Shown here in pieces: positions 7,754 to 49,984 of a stretch of DNA of 64,000 nucleotides. Origin of the DNA: Escherichia coli (lineage in GTDB: Bacteria; Pseudomonadota; Gammaproteobacteria; Enterobacterales; Enterobacteriaceae). The position numbers were made by a program, and so were the translations under genes. Position 1 is the stretch's first letter, and each line of letters begins with the position of its first letter. Where the stretch lies: assembly GCF_024700885.2 (NCBI RefSeq), contig NZ_CP117016.1; one strand, given 5' to 3'. The notes under the pieces are model-generated. The model did not search any database, was not told the origin of the DNA, and saw only the letters and a program-made list of their open reading frames with translations.

Positions 7754-8633
7754 TCACACACTGCCACTGGCCCATTGCGCCATGCCCGGCACATATCAGT
7801 CACAGAGCCTTTCGGGGATAATTTGCAGAGTGGTCTGGCTGACTTTCTCTGTAGGCAGATCGTTCCCGCTTGATAGCTCATCCCCCAAAGAAACGTCACG
7901 ATATTTGGTATTTTCAAAATTCAAAAAGAAAACCCGCAGAGTGGCAACAGAGATTAAAAAGTTTGAGAAACGCGATCTGGCACAGGCGGTGATTGGTGTT
8001 GGAGTGATGGTAGATTTTATCAGCCGGATAATGTCGGTTCTGGCTGATAGCTGGGGTTGTTGGTGTGGTCTTCCTATTGATGAAAAAACAAGCAATTACT
8101 TGGCATATTATCTGTAACACTTTAAAACTGTTAAGAAGATCACAATTCATTATGTTTATTATTGTCTGGCCGGAGGGATATTTGTTAAAAAGTGCGCCGT
8201 GTGGTGAATCCCCCTGTGCGGTGGGGCGACTGGTGTACATAGCATTTATTATGTTATGAGCGAAGCCTACGCGGGTTCAGTGACACCGACTGAATTCACC
8301 GGGAGGCACCCGGCACCATGCAACAGACGCAAGTTAGGCTAAGCCTTATACCCCTGTAAGTTTTTTACAGGGTTTTTTTGTGCACAGAAAACCCCCAGCT
8401 AGGCTGGGGGGGCCGGAAAGCTTTCAGCTTTGAGCCAGTTATTAAAACTCTGAACCGGTTCCTGGCACGAATATCATTCCCGGCCTGCGCTTTGATTATC
8501 TCAGCGACTCCGGCGGGAACTTCAGCCGCAGTCTGAATCTTTCGCAGGAATTGGGCGATTATTTCAAAGTCAAAGCAGGGGTTGCCCGAACCTTTAAAGC
8601 CCCAAACTGTACTGACCCCAAAAAGTTGGACAG

Positions 8634-41023: not shown

Positions 41024-43455
41024 TCCAGCCCCATCGCCCGCAAATGCTCGGCCACTTTCTCGCTCAACGCCTCAACGGAGGCTTCAAGCGCTAGCAACGG
41101 TTCAGCATAACGCTCTTCCAGCTCCTTTACGCGCGACGCCAGTTGCTGGGTAATACGCTCAATCTCCGCCTTGATCCCTGCCTGCAACGTTGCCAGCCAC
41201 TTATCCTGCACTACCAGCGTTTTAATCGCTGCTTCATCCAGCGTGGGATAATGTTTAAACACCGCCCGATCCAGCGCTTCTTGTGCGGCTTTCAGCGCTT
41301 TTTTCGCACTGGCTTCGGCCTTAATTAGCGCCAGGCAGCGGTTCAGCACTGCCAGCTCATCTGGGCCGGCAGTGGTTTTCTTTAACTGTGCTAGACGGGC
41401 ATTCACCAGCTTTTGCGTCACCTTATCTTTATCGTTCTTCGCCTCGGCCAGCAGATCCTCTTCACCTGCCTGCTCCTCGATGAATTCCACTAGCTGACGA
41501 CTGGCTTCTTCACTGCGCTCCTGCGCGCGGTTCAGCGCATCCAGCAGTTCCGGGAAACAGCGAATTTCCACCAGCGAACGGGGCAGCACATCGGCCTTGT
41601 AGCGCCGTTTGGTAAACTCGAAATCGTGCGTTTCTTTCCAGATGTTTTTGCCATCTTTGCCTTTCACCGGCTGAAGCTCGCGGATTTGCGCGGCGGCTTG
41701 CCAGCCATCCTGCATAATCGCATACACATCGTCTTGCATGACATCAGTCCAGTAATCCATCAGGATCTGGTACACGCTGTATTTGTTCAGCAACTCACTG
41801 TTGGCGTACTGCGCCAATAGCATTTCGCTGATATCGTGGATTAGCGCTTTGGGTTTATCACCTTTGCGAATCTCTTCCAGACTTGCCTCTTTCACCCACG
41901 CTTTAAACGGTAGCAGGCTGCGGGTGGCAAAATCCTTAAACTCCTGATGCGCCAGAATGGTCGGTTTCACCTGTTGCGCGTTCACCTGCGCCCGACAGTA
42001 ACCGGGACGGTCGTCAGCAAACAGCACGTTGCGCAGGGCAGGGAATACCCGCCAGTAATCTTGCAAAGCATCCACATCGCGTGCCGGAATACCGCCCTGT
42101 AAGTGCGCGGTCAGATCGTGTAAATCTTCCGGCTCGCCGCTCTCGATATAGCGAGGAATATTCAGGTTGTAATCATTTCCGGCGATCTCGCTGGAGGGCA
42201 CCATCCGGCTGTAGCCAGGTACCGTTCGCTGATGGTTGAACACGTCCACAATGCGGTGAATATCTCGGCTACGCAGGCGGTTCTTGTTGCCATCTTTGAT
42301 AAAGCCCCGGCTGGCGTCGATCATAAAAATGCCTTTGCGGCTGTGGGCGTGCTCTTTATCAATCACAATGATGCACGCCGGGATGCCGGTGCCGTAAAAC
42401 AGGTTGGCTGGCAAACCAATAACGCCTTTGATATAGCCCTGCTTGATTAGATTTTCACGGATATTCGCTTCGGCGTTACCGCGAAACAGTACGCCGTGGG
42501 GCAGGATCACCGCGCCTTTGCCGGTACTTTTCAGGCTTTTAATGATATGCAACAAAAAAGCATAATCGCCGTTTTTTTCCGGCGGAATACCCCAGCCGAA
42601 GCGTTCAAACGGATCTTTTTTCGGCGTCAGCCCGTTGGTCCAGTTTTTATTGGAAAAAGGCGGGTTCGCCACGGCAAAATCGAAGGCTTTCAGTTTGCCG
42701 TTCGCCTCTTTCCACTGCGGATCGCTCAGCGTATTGCCCTGCCAGATTTTCGCGGTGGCATTGTTATGCAGAATCATGTTCATCCGCGCCAGCGCACTGG
42801 TAGCGTTATCCATCTCCTGGCCGAAAATCGACAGTCCGCGCCGGGCTTCATCATTCACTTTCAACAGCAGCGAACCAGAGCCACAGGTTGGGTCATAAAC
42901 CGTTGCATCTTGCGGAGTATCGGGAGTAATACCAATCACCTTCGCCAGAATACGTGACACCTCCGCTGGAGTGTAAAACTGCCCTTTACTCTTACCGGAT
43001 TCGGTTGCGAAGTGACGCATCAGATATTCATAGGCATCGCCCAGCAGATCGTCGCCTTCGGCCCGGTTGCTGGAGAGATTTAACCCTTCAAAGATACCGA
43101 CAAGCTTGCTCAGGCGGTCAATCATTTCCTTGCCTTTGCCGAGCTTATCTTCGTCGTTAAAGTCGGCTTCGTCGATGACGCCCTTCAGGCCGTTCTCTTC
43201 CGCCAGCTTGTGGATGATTTTGTTGATTTTGTCGCCGATCTCTTTGTCATTTTTCAGCGCAACCATATCGTCAAAGCTGGCTCCTTTGGGTATCACGATC
43301 ATCCCGTAAGGATCGCCTTTATACTTATCGGAAACGTACTTCATAAACAGCAGGGTCAGTACATAGTCTTTGTACTGGCTGGCGTCCATCCCGCCACGCA
43401 GTTCGTCGCAGCTTGCCCACAGGGAAGAATAGAGTTCGGTTTTTTTGATAGCCAT
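41017..43455 (-). CDS. hsdM: Type I restriction-modification DNA methyltransferase (HsdM) with long C-terminal coiled-coil-rich extension
   Basis: 812-aa; N6-adenine MTase motifs YDPTCGSGSLL (motif I) and VANPPFS (motif IV); C-terminal ~300 aa Ala/Glu/Lys/Leu-rich. Confidence 0.8.
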   Translation of the reverse strand: MAIKKTELYSSLWASCDELRGGMDASQYKDYVLTLLFMKYVSDKYKGDPYGMIVIPKGASFDDMVALKNDKEIGDKINKIIHKLAEENGLKGVIDEADFNDEDKLGKGKEMIDRLSKLVGIFEGLNLSSNRAEGDDLLGDAYEYLMRHFATESGKSKGQFYTPAEVSRILAKVIGITPDTPQDATVYDPTCGSGSLLLKVNDEARRGLSIFGQEMDNATSALARMNMILHNNATAKIWQGNTLSDPQWKEANGKLKAFDFAVANPPFSNKNWTNGLTPKKDPFERFGWGIPPEKNGDYAFLLHIIKSLKSTGKGAVILPHGVLFRGNAEANIRENLIKQGYIKGVIGLPANLFYGTGIPACIIVIDKEHAHSRKGIFMIDASRGFIKDGNKNRLRSRDIHRIVDVFNHQRTVPGYSRMVPSSEIAGNDYNLNIPRYIESGEPEDLHDLTAHLQGGIPARDVDALQDYWRVFPALRNVLFADDRPGYCRAQVNAQQVKPTILAHQEFKDFATRSLLPFKAWVKEASLEEIRKGDKPKALIHDISEMLLAQYANSELLNKYSVYQILMDYWTDVMQDDVYAIMQDGWQAAAQIRELQPVKGKDGKNIWKETHDFEFTKRRYKADVLPRSLVEIRCFPELLDALNRAQERSEEASRQLVEFIEEQAGEEDLLAEAKNDKDKVTQKLVNARLAQLKKTTAGPDELAVLNRCLALIKAEASAKKALKAAQEALDRAVFKHYPTLDEAAIKTLVVQDKWLATLQAGIKAEIERITQQLASRVKELEERYAEPLLALEASVEALSEKVAEHLRAMGLEW

Positions 43456-43494
43456 TAAATATCTCGTTTTGCGCGATAATGTGCCGTAAGTCGG

Positions 43495-43800
43495 TTACAG
43501 CAGATCGGTATTCAGACCGGCGGCCTTTAACCGATGGGTTAAGTTACGCATTTTGCTGAATTCGGTACCGAGGCTCTGGTTCAGACCAGTGCCTTCGCAA
43601 AAGGCTTTTGCCGTAATGTGTTCCAGTTTGTCGGCATATTTAATCATTTGCAGGTGCAGCTCGACGGTGTACTGGTTACGAGGCGCACTGGAAAGTGCCT
43701 GCCGGATATGGCGATAAATCTCGTCTTCATTCATATTCATGGCAACCACTGGTATAATAGATAAGTTAGCTAAATTAGCTAAATGTGGTATCAGGTTCAA
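43495..43800 (-). CDS. Small hypothetical protein directly upstream of hsdM (possible regulator)
   Basis: 81-101 codon ORF, same strand, 40 bp upstream of hsdM; tandem TTAGCTAAA repeats just upstream of it. Confidence 0.35.
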   Translation of the reverse strand: MNLIPHLANLANLSIIPVVAMNMNEDEIYRHIRQALSSAPRNQYTVELHLQMIKYADKLEHITAKAFCEGTGLNQSLGTEFSKMRNLTHRLKAAGLNTDLL

Positions 43801-44732
43801 GAACTACAGTGGGAGTCGGATTTGACTGCGCGATTTATGCACGTAAATGCCTTGTGGCGGATTAATGGCCGCAGTATCTTCTCCTTCCGCGCCTGCAAAA
43901 TCAGGCGTCGGGATTAGCTTCCTGAAAACCGTTACAGGAGACTTCTCTATGACTACAATCCTTGTCCCTGACTGCGATTTACTCGATCTATTGTTCGTTT
44001 CCTTATAATGTCACTATGGATTTCACCGCCTTGGTCGACAACTGCGCCCACTTCGTCGAATCCCTGATAGAAACCGAGGATCCCGCGCTGTGGCTTACCC
44101 TCTGCGGGCGACATTGTACTGCTGCAACCCACGCCGACCTCATCCCGCCGCATTTTACCGAAAGCCTGCTCAGTGATACTCTCCCCACCATGCCAGATCA
44201 GGTTATTTCTGAACCTGATTCTTGTGCGAATATTGCCTCGTGCGGGCTGTGCATCATCGCCGCTCTTTGATAAGAGGCGTCAAAGGTAAGGGGCGTAGCG
44301 TTATTAGTTTGGGCTATACACTTGCGCTACAACTCTTCAAATAGCTATATATCAACAATATTTAGCCATAAACCGTCTACTTCCGTCTCAATTATACTCA
44401 AATTAAGGCATGCGGCATCTTTGTGACACATTTGTTTTTTTGATACAGGTTAGAGTTGACCTGCTCTCCGTTGATTAACTCACATTGTTGTTAACCACGT
44501 CTACTTTTAGCACGACACTGATGCGTTAACTGAGCGAATGGTCTGCTTTGAGCGAGGAACGGACATTACTAACAGCATTCTGTGTGAATCACCAGGGAGC
44601 AGGTCAGCGCCACTACTCTATATAATCGCTAACGATGACAAGTATAATTATATAAGTCTTTGCCCTTAGCTTTTGGATAAAATTGTTGAAGTTTCACGAA
44701 AATAATGATAAACAAAAACAGTAGCAATAATT

Positions 44733-45677
44733 ATGGATTTAATTATGGAATGGAGATTTTTAGGTTCTCTATCAGAGGCCAGGAAATCTGGCTGTAGCGG
44801 AGTTTATCTTATTGTCCATAAAGGACTTTTCAGTCGTGTGGTTTACGTTGGGGTAAGTTGTAATGTAGGTAGAAGGATAACCGAACATTACGACGGTTAT
44901 CTTAGAGGAAATCGAACAATTTACGACGCTGGTCACGACGAAGACGTTTATCGCTTCATGTCAGCTTATAAAATTCATAACCACACAAAATACTATCAAG
45001 CCTTGGCGAATGATTATAAGATATGGGCATCTACCACAATGTATTCTGATTTGCCGAAAAACATGCTAGCAAAAAGCCAAACCTTTGATACTGATTGGCA
45101 GAGCATTGCATTAGAAAAATATATTCCTCAACTGGTAGTATGGGCCCTTCCAATGGCAAAGTACTGTTATTCAAATGCAAGCAGGATTGAAAGTGTAATC
45201 CAATCAAAGCTCATTAAATCTTTTGATTTGAGAGGTTTTTTTAATATAAAGCAATTAAGCATATTGGGTAAAATTGAATATCCCTATATGGAAAAGGTCA
45301 AAGTTTTCATTATTAACACACCTGATTTAGACCCGGCATCCCAGCTTATTTTTAGCAATCTATATAACAAAAAAACTGATAACAACTTCTGTAAAGAGTT
45401 CCGTTCACAATTTAAAAGCGAGATTTTTCAGAGGGAAAGTGAAACTCAGAGAAAGCGAACTATCAGGGAGCATAAGGTATCTCTTTATGAAAATTATGGC
45501 AAGCCTTGGACTTTAAAGGAAATGGAAAAACTTAGAGTCATGCTTGTCGATTTTGATTTGTCCCCGATAGAAATATCTGAGTATCTAGGAAGAGAGCCGC
45601 GCTCTATATCTAAAAAAATAAGCGAAAATGATAAAGTTACTAATTATAAATGGCGAGAGAGCGTCGGCTGGTTGTGA
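44733..45677 (+). CDS. Hypothetical protein with N-terminal GIY-YIG-like nuclease motif and C-terminal HTH-like region
   Basis: 314-aa AT-rich ORF; GVY-x12-YVG-x5-GRRITEH pattern near N-terminus; C-terminal …WTLKEMEKLRVMLVDFDLSPIEISEYLGREPRSISKKI… resembles a sigma-r4/LuxR-type HTH. Confidence 0.5.
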   Translation: MDLIMEWRFLGSLSEARKSGCSGVYLIVHKGLFSRVVYVGVSCNVGRRITEHYDGYLRGNRTIYDAGHDEDVYRFMSAYKIHNHTKYYQALANDYKIWASTTMYSDLPKNMLAKSQTFDTDWQSIALEKYIPQLVVWALPMAKYCYSNASRIESVIQSKLIKSFDLRGFFNIKQLSILGKIEYPYMEKVKVFIINTPDLDPASQLIFSNLYNKKTDNNFCKEFRSQFKSEIFQRESETQRKRTIREHKVSLYENYGKPWTLKEMEKLRVMLVDFDLSPIEISEYLGREPRSISKKISENDKVTNYKWRESVGWL

Positions 45678-46765: not shown

Positions 46766-47137
46766 ACACTCTGCCAGGGGAAATGCCTGATTACATTGCG
46801 TTAACCAACTGAAAACATGATACAAACACTCCATCCCCCTCCTGTTTCTCTTGCGTGACTGCCCTGCTGTTAATAGAATAAAACGATCGATAAAACAGGT
46901 ATCGATCGTTACCATCGATCGTTTATAGTGGTTAATGGTCTGCGAAAAGGCAGCTGAATCTCTTCATCATGCAGAACGGAATTGCACACAACGGACTGAT
47001 ACTTCTCTGGCGGATGAGAGAGGGGAAGCATTTATGTCCGGGAAAAACCACTTTATCTGACCATGCTGTTTTGTACCTGCCGGTATCCACATTTGTGGGT
47101 ACCGGCTTTTTTATTCACCCTCTGTAAGGAAAAGCTG

Positions 47138-49984
47138 ATGAAACGACATCTGAACACCAGCTACAGGCTGGTATGGAATCACATTACGGGCACCCTGGTG
47201 GTGGCTTCCGAACTGGCGCGCTCACGGGGAAAACGCACCGGTGTGGCGATTGCGCTGTCTCTTGCTGCTGTCACATCAGTTCCGGCACTGGCTGCTGACA
47301 CGGTTGTACAGGCGGGAGAAACCGTGAGCGGCGGAACACTGACAAATCATGACAACCAGATTGTTCTCGGTACGGCCAACGGAATGACCATCAGTACCGG
47401 TCTGGAGTATGGGCCGGATAACGAGGCCAATACCGGCGGGCAATGGATACAAAATGGCGGTATCGCCAACAACACTACTGTCACCGGTGGTGGTCTTCAG
47501 AGAGTGAATGCCGGAGGAAGCGTTTCAGACACGGTTATCAGTGCCGGAGGCGGACAGAGCCTTCAGGGGCAGGCAGTGAATACCACTCTGAACGGCGGTG
47601 AGCAGTGGGTACATGAAGGCGGGATTGCAACGGGTACCGTCATTAATGAGAAGGGCTGGCAGGCCGTCAAATCCGGCGCAATGGCAACCGACACGGTTGT
47701 GAATACCGGCGCGGAAGGGGGACCAGATGCAGAAAATGGTGATACCGGGCAGTTTGTTCGCGGAAATGCCGTACGTACCACCATCAATAAAAATGGTCGT
47801 CAGATTGTGGCTGTTGAAGGAACAGCAAATACCACTGTGGTTTATGCCGGCGGCGACCAGACGGTACACGGGCATGCGCTGGATACCACACTGAATGGCG
47901 GTTACCAGTATGTGCACAACGGAGGCACAGCCTCTGACACGGTTGTAAACAGTGACGGCTGGCAGATTGTCAAGGAAGGTGGTCTGGCGGATTTCACCAC
48001 CGTTAACCAGAAAGGCAAACTGCAGGTGAACGCCGGTGGTACAGCCACGAATGTCACCCTGAAACAGGGTGGAGCACTGGTCACCAGTACTGCGGCAACG
48101 GTTCTTGGCAGCAACCGTCTGGGCAATTTCACGGTGGAAAACGGTAAGGCTGACGGCGTTGTTCTGGAGTCCGGCGGTCGCCTGGATGTACTGGAAGGCC
48201 ATTCAGCGCAGAAAACACGGGTGGATGACGGCGGAACCCTGGCAGTGTCTGCCGGTGGTAAGGCAACAGATGTCACCATGACATCCGGTAGTGCCCTGAT
48301 TGCAGACAGTGGTGCCACTGTTGAGGGGACCAATGCCAGCGGTAAGTTCAGTATTGATGGCACATCCGGTCAGGCCAGCGGACTGCTGCTGGAAAATGGC
48401 GGCAGCTTTACGGTTAATGCCGGGGGACAGGCCAGCAACACCACTGTCGGACATCGTGGAACACTGATGCTGGCTGCCGGGGGAAGTCTGAGTGGCAGAA
48501 CACAGCTCAGTAAAGGCGCCAGCATGGTACTGAATGGTGATGTGGTCAGTACCGGCGATATTGTTAACGCAGGGGAGATTTACTTTGACAATCAGACAAC
48601 ACCGGATGCCGTACTGAGCCGTGCTGTTGCAAAAGGCGACTCCCCGGTAACGTTCCATAAACTGACAACCAGTAACCTCACCGGTCAGGGTGGCACCATC
48701 AATATGCGTGTTCGCCTTGATGGCAGCAATGCCTCTGACCAGCTGGTGATTAATGGTGGTCAGGCAACCGGCAAAACCTGGCTTGCGTTTACAAATGTCG
48801 GAAACAGCAACCTCGGGGTGGCAACCTCCGGACAGGGTATCCGGGTTGTGGATGCACAGAATGGCGCCACCACAGAAGAAGGTGCGTTTGCCCTGAGTCG
48901 CCCGCTTCAGGCCGGCGCCTTTAACTACACCCTGAACCGTGACAGCGATGAAGACTGGTACCTGCGCAGTGAAAATGCTTATCGTGCTGAAGTCCCCCTG
49001 TATACATCCATGCTGACACAGGCAATGGACTATGACCGGATTCTGGCAGGCTCCCGCAGCCATCAGACCGGTGTAAACGGTGAAAATAACAGCGTCCGTC
49101 TCAGCATTCAGGGCGGTCATCTCGGTCACGATAACAACGGCGGTATTGCCCGTGGAGCCACGCCGGAAAGCAGCGGCAGCTATGGCTTCGTCCGTCTGGA
49201 GGGTGACCTGCTCAGAACAGAGGTTGCCGGTATGTCTCTGACGACAGGGGTGTATGGTGCTGCAGGCCATTCTTCCGTTGATGTTAAGGATGATGACGGT
49301 TCCCGCGCCGGCACGGTCCGGGATGATGCCGGCAGCCTGGGCGGATACCTGAATCTGACACACACGTCCTCCGGCCTGTGGGCTGACATTGTGGCACAGG
49401 GAACCCGCCACAGCATGAAAGCGTCATCGGACAATAACGACTTCCGCGCCCGGGGCTGGGGCTGGCTGGGCTCACTGGAAACCGGTCTGCCCTTCAGTAT
49501 CACTGACAACCTGATGCTGGAGCCACAACTGCAGTACACCTGGCAGGGGCTCTCCCTGGATGACGGCCAGGATAACGCCGGTTATGTGAAGTTCGGGCAT
49601 GGCAGTACACAACATGTGCGTGCCGGCTTCCGTCTGGGCAGCCACAACGATATGACCTTTGGCGAAGGCACCTCATCCCGTGACACTCTGCGCGACAGTG
49701 CAAAACACCGTGTGAGTGAACTGCCGGTGAACTGGTGGGTACAGCCTTCTGTTATCCGCACTTTCAGCTCCCGGGGTGACATGAGCATGGGTACAGCCGC
49801 AGCCGGCAGTAACATGACGTTCTCACCCTCACAGAATGGCACATCACTGGACCTGCAGGCCGGACTGGAAGCCCGTGTCCGGGAAAATATCACCCTGGGC
49901 GTTCAGGCCGGTTATGCCCACAGCATCAACGGCAGCAGCGCTGAAGGTTATAGCAGTCAGGCCACGCTGAATGTGACCTTCTGA
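47138..49984 (+). CDS. flu: Antigen 43-family self-associating autotransporter adhesin
   Basis: About 949-aa; signal peptide MKRHLNTSYRLVWNHITGTLVVASELAR…, repetitive passenger, C-terminal beta-barrel ending …QATLNVTF. Confidence 0.8.
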   Translation: MKRHLNTSYRLVWNHITGTLVVASELARSRGKRTGVAIALSLAAVTSVPALAADTVVQAGETVSGGTLTNHDNQIVLGTANGMTISTGLEYGPDNEANTGGQWIQNGGIANNTTVTGGGLQRVNAGGSVSDTVISAGGGQSLQGQAVNTTLNGGEQWVHEGGIATGTVINEKGWQAVKSGAMATDTVVNTGAEGGPDAENGDTGQFVRGNAVRTTINKNGRQIVAVEGTANTTVVYAGGDQTVHGHALDTTLNGGYQYVHNGGTASDTVVNSDGWQIVKEGGLADFTTVNQKGKLQVNAGGTATNVTLKQGGALVTSTAATVLGSNRLGNFTVENGKADGVVLESGGRLDVLEGHSAQKTRVDDGGTLAVSAGGKATDVTMTSGSALIADSGATVEGTNASGKFSIDGTSGQASGLLLENGGSFTVNAGGQASNTTVGHRGTLMLAAGGSLSGRTQLSKGASMVLNGDVVSTGDIVNAGEIYFDNQTTPDAVLSRAVAKGDSPVTFHKLTTSNLTGQGGTINMRVRLDGSNASDQLVINGGQATGKTWLAFTNVGNSNLGVATSGQGIRVVDAQNGATTEEGAFALSRPLQAGAFNYTLNRDSDEDWYLRSENAYRAEVPLYTSMLTQAMDYDRILAGSRSHQTGVNGENNSVRLSIQGGHLGHDNNGGIARGATPESSGSYGFVRLEGDLLRTEVAGMSLTTGVYGAAGHSSVDVKDDDGSRAGTVRDDAGSLGGYLNLTHTSSGLWADIVAQGTRHSMKASSDNNDFRARGWGWLGSLETGLPFSITDNLMLEPQLQYTWQGLSLDDGQDNAGYVKFGHGSTQHVRAGFRLGSHNDMTFGEGTSSRDTLRDSAKHRVSELPVNWWVQPSVIRTFSSRGDMSMGTAAAGSNMTFSPSQNGTSLDLQAGLEARVRENITLGVQAGYAHSINGSSAEGYSSQATLNVTF

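Follow-up and report, generated by a model that had tools for sequence, protein, structure and literature searches.

Upstream of the Type I RM and DarTG genes in a 64,000-nucleotide stretch of Escherichia coli DNA (the window) lies a small open reading frame on the same strand, preceded by a tandem repeat. The question raised by this locus is whether the frame and the repeat form a regulator and its operator and, if so, of what kind and by what mechanism they would act on the operon. The comparisons made here give a direct answer to the first part: the small gene is rptR, the upstream repeats are RptR binding sites, and the pair is already explained, since it was described experimentally in 2025 by Zhang et al. 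(Nucleic Acids Res 2025, gkaf645, PMC12255303), the source of PDB entry 9R2Z. In that work on E. coli O127:H6 E2348/69, RptR stands for RMS-proximal transcriptional regulator, and RRDM for RptR-RMS-DarTG2-M48, a seven-gene island of EPEC E2348/69 (PMC12255303).

The identity of the small protein was established by searches against solved structures and profiles. Its residues 1-79 matched PDB 9R2Z chain A ("Transcription factor", 79 aa, E 5.7e-47), which is RptR of EPEC E2348/69, with 76 of 79 residues identical (96%). The frame had been described as having no assignable family when only its letters were considered; the profile search assigns it to Pfam PF24718 (HTH_73), with an E value of 1.9e-28 and a score of 98.6 bits (cut-off 27), profile positions 1-70 of 71 being covered by residues 4-73 of the 81-aa frame. 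This was the sole significant Pfam match of the 79-aa protein. The NCBIfam search with the small protein gave nothing above noise, and none of the PADLOC models matched it. A further match, to PHROG family phrog_30666 of unknown function (E 5e-37; 43498-43734, minus strand), suggested a phage-encoded RptR acting as an anti-defence factor; this candidate was rejected, as tblastn found 0 homologues in 50,697 GenBank phage records. Homologues of rptR were found in 76 plasmid records.

The three substitutions that separate the window protein from EPEC RptR (N2 for D, N52 for S and H67 for R) spare all DNA-contact and dimer residues. H67 adjoins the dimer residue R68, and position 67 is occupied by R, H, Q, A or E among homologues. 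The roles of the contact and dimer residues are those given in the EPEC work, in which T57-K61 of alpha-4 contacts DNA and E58 and K61 are invariant (PMC12255303). In 12 full-length homologues, window included, both the contact residues T57-K61 and the dimer residues E25, L65, R68, L69, A72 and L74 were invariant.

The extent of the gene also had to be settled. In the ORF listing, the maximal frame (43495..43800, minus strand) is TTG-initiated and has 101 aa, with in-frame ATGs at 43740 (81 aa) and 43734 (79 aa) and a TAA stop at 43497-43495. The start of rptR is the second ATG, 43734, which gives 79 aa, because homologues mostly have 79 aa, the PGAP annotation of an identical E. coli locus is of this length (WP_001431807.1, "HTH-like domain-containing protein"), and the crystallised protein has 79 aa. 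The published distances confirm this start: counted from the second ATG, motif centres at 72, 51 and 42 bp and repeats from -58 to -31 fit the EPEC sequence. The TTG "start" of the 101-codon frame (43800) is part of the -35 hexamer and is spurious. The sequence-only reading was right that a small frame lies about 40 bp upstream of hsdM on the same strand (the distance is 39 nt) but too generous in giving it 81 to 101 codons.

The gene is the first of an operon in the order rptR-hsdM-hsdS-darT-darG-hsdR-M48, all on the minus strand (Table 1). The ATG of hsdM is at 43455, no terminator-like sites were found in 43300-44800, and rptR and hsdM are probably co-transcribed. In HsdM, Pfam assigns nothing to the roughly 370 C-terminal residues that follow the N6_Mtase domain, which ends near residue 441; PADLOC has an MTase_I model as long as this protein. 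The M48 accession WP_001122107.1 is common to the window-type locus and the EPEC island, and the DarG accession is likewise identical. Many E. coli chromosomes match this region at 100% identity, and GTPase, Ag43 and cbtA/cbeA genes neighbour the island within its CP4/P4-like element.

Table 1. Promoter elements, RptR sites and genes of the rptR-headed operon, in window positions
Feature	Coordinates	Strand	Basis or remarks
-35 hexamer TTGAAC	43795..43800	-	same sequence and position as EPEC -35
DR1 TTTAGCTAA, core palindrome TAGCTA, RptR site	43775..43783	-	identical EPEC repeat with EMSA and reporter data
-10 box AGCTAATTT	43772..43780	-	14 nt downstream of -35, across the DR1/DR2 junction; equivalent to EPEC 5' -10 box
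DR2 TTTAGCTAA, core TAGCTA, RptR site	43766..43774	-	EPEC data
Degenerate repeat 3 CTTATCTAT, core TATCTA, predicted RptR site	43757..43765	-	9-bp register with DR1 and DR2
rptR CDS, 79 aa plus stop	43495..43734	-	PF24718, 9R2Z identity, PGAP, homologue lengths
rptR-hsdM spacer, 39 nt	43456..43494	-	conserved in EPEC and Dickeya RRDM loci
hsdM, Type I methyltransferase, 812 aa	41017..43455	-	Pfam HsdM_N, N6_Mtase; PADLOC MTase_I, E 0
hsdS, specificity subunit	39683..41023	-	Pfam Methylase_S; PADLOC Specificity_I; PGAP start 41017 in identical locus
darT, ssDNA thymidine ADP-ribosyltransferase toxin	39014..39670	-	Pfam DarT, 3.1e-53; PADLOC DarT
darG, macrodomain antitoxin	37950..39029	-	Pfam Macro; PADLOC DarG, 1.5e-127
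hsdR, Type I restriction subunit	34836..37931	-	Pfam HSDR_N, SWI2_SNF2, T1R_D3-like; PADLOC REase_I
M48/YgjP-like metallopeptidase, RRDM gene 7 (last)	34120..34836	-	Pfam YgjP-like, 1.3e-61

The direct repeat reported at about 43765-43785 is present exactly as described: on the plus strand, 43764-43783 reads AGTTAGCTAAATTAGCTAAA, and within it TTAGCTAAA occurs twice in perfect tandem (43766-43783). A lone TTAGCTAA is not rare within the window, so that the signal lies in the tandem array, and when as many as 3 mismatches were allowed, the 18-mer TTAGCTAAATTAGCTAAA gave 3 overlapping matches, where shuffled sequence would give 0.07. Along the minus strand, the order is TTGAAC, a 14-nt spacer, TTTAGCTAA, TTTAGCTAA, CTTATCTAT, TATACCAGTGGTTGCC and ATGAAT-ATG, which places the 6-mers TAGCTA, TAGCTA and TATCTA at -47, -38 and -29 from the rptR start. 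The stretch that carries these sites, TATCTA included, reads TTTAGCTAATTTAGCTAACTTATCTAT.

The repeat had also been placed inside a TATAAT-containing stretch. TATAAT is indeed present (43753-43758) but on the plus strand, opposite to the operon, and it was rejected as the operon's -10, since the mapped EPEC -10 is AGCTAATTT. The sense-strand TATTAT (43759-43754) was rejected for the same role because it would leave nearly no leader and the paper's data favour the upstream box. What was noticed in the letters is explained by a promoter-like site on the plus strand (TTCATA, 17 nt, TGgTATAAT; 43730-43758), whose -35 overlaps the rptR start codons. One could argue that this site, which points away from the operon, is what matters and that the repeats serve mainly as an operator or roadblock for a divergent transcript reading through them. 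It agrees with the consensus at 10 of 12 positions, has an extended -10 and stands directly upstream of the repeat array on the plus strand; such a transcript would head for an isrK/c4-a1b1-like element, which follows on that strand after about 110 nt, and for plus-strand genes of the island. However, promoter-like sites in this region number 3 against 2.6 expected from shuffles, TATAAT is weakened to TATACT in O157-type alleles, and the V. cholerae, Aeromonas and Dickeya loci that retain the repeats have no equivalent. On these grounds, a conserved divergent plus-strand promoter was rejected, and we consider it very unlikely that the repeats belong to such a transcript rather than to the rptR operon.

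The experiments made on the EPEC locus provide the functional counterpart of these elements. The EPEC promoter has a -35 TTGAAC and, 14 bp downstream, a functional 5' -10 box, AGCTAATTT; scrambling the -35 or the -10 lowered GFP reporter activity, and the 5' -10 box proved necessary and sufficient (PMC12255303). RptR is a homodimer of four-helix subunits, with a structure at 1.3 Å for which the authors found no close structural homologue, and when supplied in trans it repressed the promoter of its operon by a factor of about 10, as measured with GFP (PMC12255303). In EMSA, its dimers bound cooperatively (KD ~185 nM, Hill coefficient 3.4) to three 9-bp direct repeats (TTTAGCTAA, each with the palindrome TAGCTA); these overlap the -10 box, and bound RptR represses the rptR-hsdM-hsdS-darT-darG-hsdR-M48 operon (PMC12255303). 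Full repression needs only two repeats, a single intact repeat having a partial effect, and the S60G substitution weakens both binding and repression (PMC12255303). Mutational data and models indicate that G5/T5 and C6/A6 are interchangeable, so that TAGATA, TATCTA and TATATA are also predicted binders (four variants in all; PMC12255303). Furthermore, over-expression of RptR abolished defence against phage Trib in a plaque assay, and hsdM rose more than 15-fold upon infection (PMC12255303). The sequence-only reading had linked such control to expression after horizontal transfer; the induction actually observed is this response of hsdM to phage infection.

Aligned with E2348/69, the window locus has the same seven genes, -35, 14-nt spacer, -10 box and TTTAGCTAA repeats. 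The repeat arrays differ: the window has two perfect repeats plus CTTATCTAT (TATCTA; 43757-43783), while EPEC has three perfect repeats plus CTTATCCAT (EPEC locus L011, 1530-1590). The window thus has one repeat fewer, which is the sole difference between the arrays, and a few base substitutions occur elsewhere in the region. The presence of two, not three, perfect repeats was counted against the explanation given here, although two suffice in EPEC; moreover, since TATCTA is a tolerated variant, both alleles have three predicted sites at 9-bp spacing. The surroundings are also dissimilar, the window island being CP4/P4-like and beside GTPase and Ag43 genes, and the EPEC island being flanked by IS elements.

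We regard it as very probable that RptR dimers on the repeat array over the -10 box auto-repress the whole island and that infection lifts this repression. The 79-aa four-helix RptR would act as a dimer, with the TTAGCTAA repeats as its operator and a promoter (TTGAAC-14 nt-AGCTAATTT) that would sit within and just 5' of the array. In the model, both alpha-4 helices of a dimer enter the same major groove, where they recognise one 6-bp palindrome, TAGCTA, in which T or A at the two central positions would be tolerated. Dimers on sites spaced by 9 bp would then cooperate and cover the -10 box. A covered -10 box would exclude RNA polymerase, so that expression of the seven-gene operon would stay low and self-limited until phage infection relieves repression by RptR. 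The single-groove geometry comes from an AlphaFold 3 model and mutagenesis, not from the structure of a complex (PMC12255303). The authors liken this arrangement to bZIP proteins, as the two splayed helices of the dimer each contact one half of a 6-bp palindrome from within a single major groove; unlike bZIP proteins, RptR has no long leucine-zipper coiled coil, and the resemblance is one of AlphaFold 3 geometry, not of homology. We infer binding and repression by the window RptR from its 96% identity and near-identical promoter, and the window allele, with two perfect repeats plus TATCTA and three amino acid differences, would be expected to behave like that of EPEC.

C proteins of Type II RM systems, such as C.PvuII, C.AhdI and C.Esp1396I, have an Xre/lambda-cI-like HTH, bind two C-boxes spanning about 35 bp and usually lie upstream of the endonuclease gene. 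They are activators first and then repressors, the C-box operator being made of paired inverted repeats that give activation at low and repression at high concentration. A controller of this type is a rival reading of the small protein; it would activate and repress from C-boxes and so delay restriction relative to methylation in a new host. There is a likeness: RptR is small, dimeric and DNA-binding, its gene opens an RM operon, and it autoregulates through an operator in its own promoter. The paper, too, describes it as "akin to" C proteins in that it adds a layer of regulation (PMC12255303). However, no HTH_3, HTH_31 or other Xre-type Pfam match was found at E ≤10, the operator consists of tandem 6-bp palindromes with a 9-bp period and not of paired C-boxes, and repression alone was observed in the EPEC work. 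In addition, RptR precedes hsdM, and elsewhere Gabija or Hma operons, and not specifically an endonuclease gene; in contrast to C proteins, it reads a 6-bp palindrome in one major groove and is known only as a repressor. Membership in the C-protein family was rejected for the missing Xre-HTH match and the differing operator architecture, and a C-protein-type controller is highly improbable here. RptR acts purely as a repressor and belongs to a new fold family. Thus, the proposal of a regulator and operator for the RM-DarTG operon is upheld by the experiments on the near-identical EPEC locus, but a C-protein-type version of it is not.

The distribution of rptR extends well beyond this operon. 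Protein relatives numbered 688 at E ≤0.001; the 120 of the 688 that were listed were mostly 79 aa long and 72-99% identical, and those named by source came from Dickeya, Pantoea, Methylomonas, Vibrio, Aeromonas, Shewanella, Nitrosomonas and others. In all loci fetched, the rptR homologue was the first gene, 30-150 bp upstream of a defence operon. It headed hsdR-hsdM-hsdS in V. cholerae (L004-L006); an hsdMS fusion followed by an SMC-like ATPase and a Schlafen-like protein in Methylomonas (L007); and genes for the HmaA helicase, PtuA and PtuB, then a DUF1156 gene, in Aeromonas (L008-L010). It also headed hsdM-hsdS-GmrSD in Tn7-like elements of Shewanella (L013) and of a TARA metagenome contig (L015), the full RM-DarTG island in Dickeya (L016, L017), GajA-GajB on an E. 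coli plasmid (IncF/N; L019) and a TrlF-type ATPase with an RNA-binding-domain protein on a Yersinia ruckeri plasmid (L021).

The operator accompanies the gene. Across 10 loci from 8 genera, the 110 nt 5' of rptR contained 26 RptR-type 6-mers, that is, 23.6 per kb against 0.69 elsewhere, a 34-fold enrichment, and these lay at -56 to -27 in a 9- or 18-bp register with unrelated flanks. The 3 plasmid loci had the same 6-mer array pattern. The sequence-only reading had suggested a comparison with related hsdM upstream regions, and in this comparison both the frame and the repeats were conserved in many genera; the outcome that it had named as refuting, a frame missing upstream of related hsdM genes, did not occur. 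The conservation claim of the paper is reproduced here with different data; the published survey covered 117 homologues, of which 54 adjoin Type I RM, 12 of these 54 also with darTG2 (PMC12255303).

RptR with the same operator array also heads systems other than RM, namely Gabija, Hma plus Septu, and a TrlF-ATPase/RNA-binding-domain module. Gabija was found on the E. coli plasmid (GajA E 3e-261, GajB E 1e-286; L019, 6741-10856), HmaA with PtuA and PtuB in Aeromonas (L008, 6001-12240) and the TrlF module on Y. ruckeri plasmids (L021, 7001-11459). The RptR-headed non-RM modules were described as "of unknown function" in the published study (PMC12255303).

This range of partners recalls BrxR/CapW (WYL) and CapH/CapP, which are repressors encoded at the 5' border of various kinds of defence system and released upon infection or damage. 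Like BrxR/CapW, RptR heads varied systems (Type I RM, Gabija, Hma plus Septu and a TrlF-ATPase/Schlafen-like module). Unlike these regulators, it is a 9-kDa single-domain protein with no WYL sensor and no demonstrated partner protease; the combination of wHTH and WYL was not found in it, HTH_73 alone being significant in Pfam.

The mobile settings of the cassettes were also recorded. RptR-headed RM cassettes appear as cargo directly after Tn7-like genes encoding TnsA/TnsB/TniB and TniQ (L013, 2392-5869; L015, 1-2070). In V. cholerae (L004, 679-5442), an RptR-headed RM cassette follows three consecutive tyrosine-recombinase genes.

Within E. coli, the upstream region of the island was present in 248 of 5,426 complete genomes. 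Two perfect repeats plus TATCTA form the common allele, with about 244 of 249 E. coli records, while the three-repeat operator allele of EPEC was found in at most 5 of the 249. A 69-bp in-frame deletion within rptR, between two GGTCTGAA repeats, was present in 36 of 249 records (~14%), mostly O157-type. It removes RptR residues 50-72 and with them all of alpha-4, that is, the recognition helix and dimer interface, and so amounts to a natural rptR knock-out. In strain 350, the one deletion strain examined and O157-type, hsdM, hsdS, darT, darG, hsdR and M48 are annotated intact. An rptR without alpha-4 beside an island otherwise annotated intact suggests that repression is not indispensable at single copy, a point that counts against the explanation given here. 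The coordinates of the deleted rptR in strain 350 are 6145-6309 in L003 and 13092-13256 in L018. There is no mention of O157, pseudogenes or DISARM in the published account (PMC12255303).

Another natural variant concerns the operator itself. In E. coli FXCREC123, an IS5 lies in the TTAG of DR1, the distal repeat, with TTAG as the target duplication (L002, 4102-5345), and separates the -35 from the -10 and operator. Each operator repeat contains an IS5-type target. This insertion in one E. coli strain, together with the position of the functional -10 (AGCTAATTT) within the repeats, could lead one to see in the repeats no operator but merely duplicated -10 elements or a target hotspot for IS5, and in the frame an unrelated hitch-hiker. 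Nevertheless, EMSA binding depends on the repeats, and a single intact repeat gives only partial repression (PMC12255303). Likewise, from genus to genus the 6-mer array varies together with the gene, whereas the flanks, including the -35/-10 context, diverge. We therefore regard the absence of an operator role as extremely improbable and treat the repeats as the operator of RptR.

The spread of one regulator over so many settings raises the question of whether RptR is a "public" repressor shared among mobile elements, so that any two RptR-headed systems in a cell would cross-repress. The recognition helix GTEFSKMRNLT and the operator are invariant across genera, and rptR-headed modules sit on chromosomal islands, Tn7-like transposons and conjugative plasmids. 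The biochemistry of such cross-silencing is plausible, since RptR in trans abolishes RRDM defence (PMC12255303). We nonetheless hold this generalization to be unlikely. If it were true, an incoming plasmid or island expressing rptR could transiently silence the resident restriction and DarTG defence under RptR control, and the alpha-4 deletion alleles of O157-type strains would leave the island constitutively on.

It is important to consider that the regulator, its structure, binding site, promoter and phylogenetic spread were already published in 2025 for another E. coli strain. The value of the present analysis lies in the corrected annotation of the window, with the true start codon, the promoter elements and three operator sites. 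The additions are modest: the rarity of the three-repeat EPEC allele, the natural rptR deletions, and RptR at the head of Gabija and Hma/Septu.

Several RNA elements were found near the locus and in the rest of the window. At gathering score, no Rfam family was detected in the rptR region. Sub-threshold matches to isrK (42.3 bits, gathering 50) and c4-a1b1 (40.9 bits, gathering 46.7) lie at 43876-43950 on the plus strand, about 110 nt upstream of the repeats, and correspond to a P1/P4-type immunity-RNA target-like element. These matches are unrelated to the repeats. About 773 other E. coli records contain a 73-bp piece of this region (43870-43942) at ~93% identity. In the two that were examined, the piece lies in P4-like remnants at a tRNA-Thr gene, close to a gene for an "ash family protein" and to other defence cargo, which is a 1069-aa reverse transcriptase in one record and, in the second, a Type I RM. 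Elsewhere in the window, matches at gathering score comprised group II intron domains at 27235-27314 (minus strand) and 28751-28830 (plus strand), in opposite orientation and 1.4 kb apart, the sRNA STnc100 at 8169-8383 (plus strand), and IS102 RNA at 46883-47119 (plus strand), which overlaps the 5' end of a 973-aa ORF (47063-49984).
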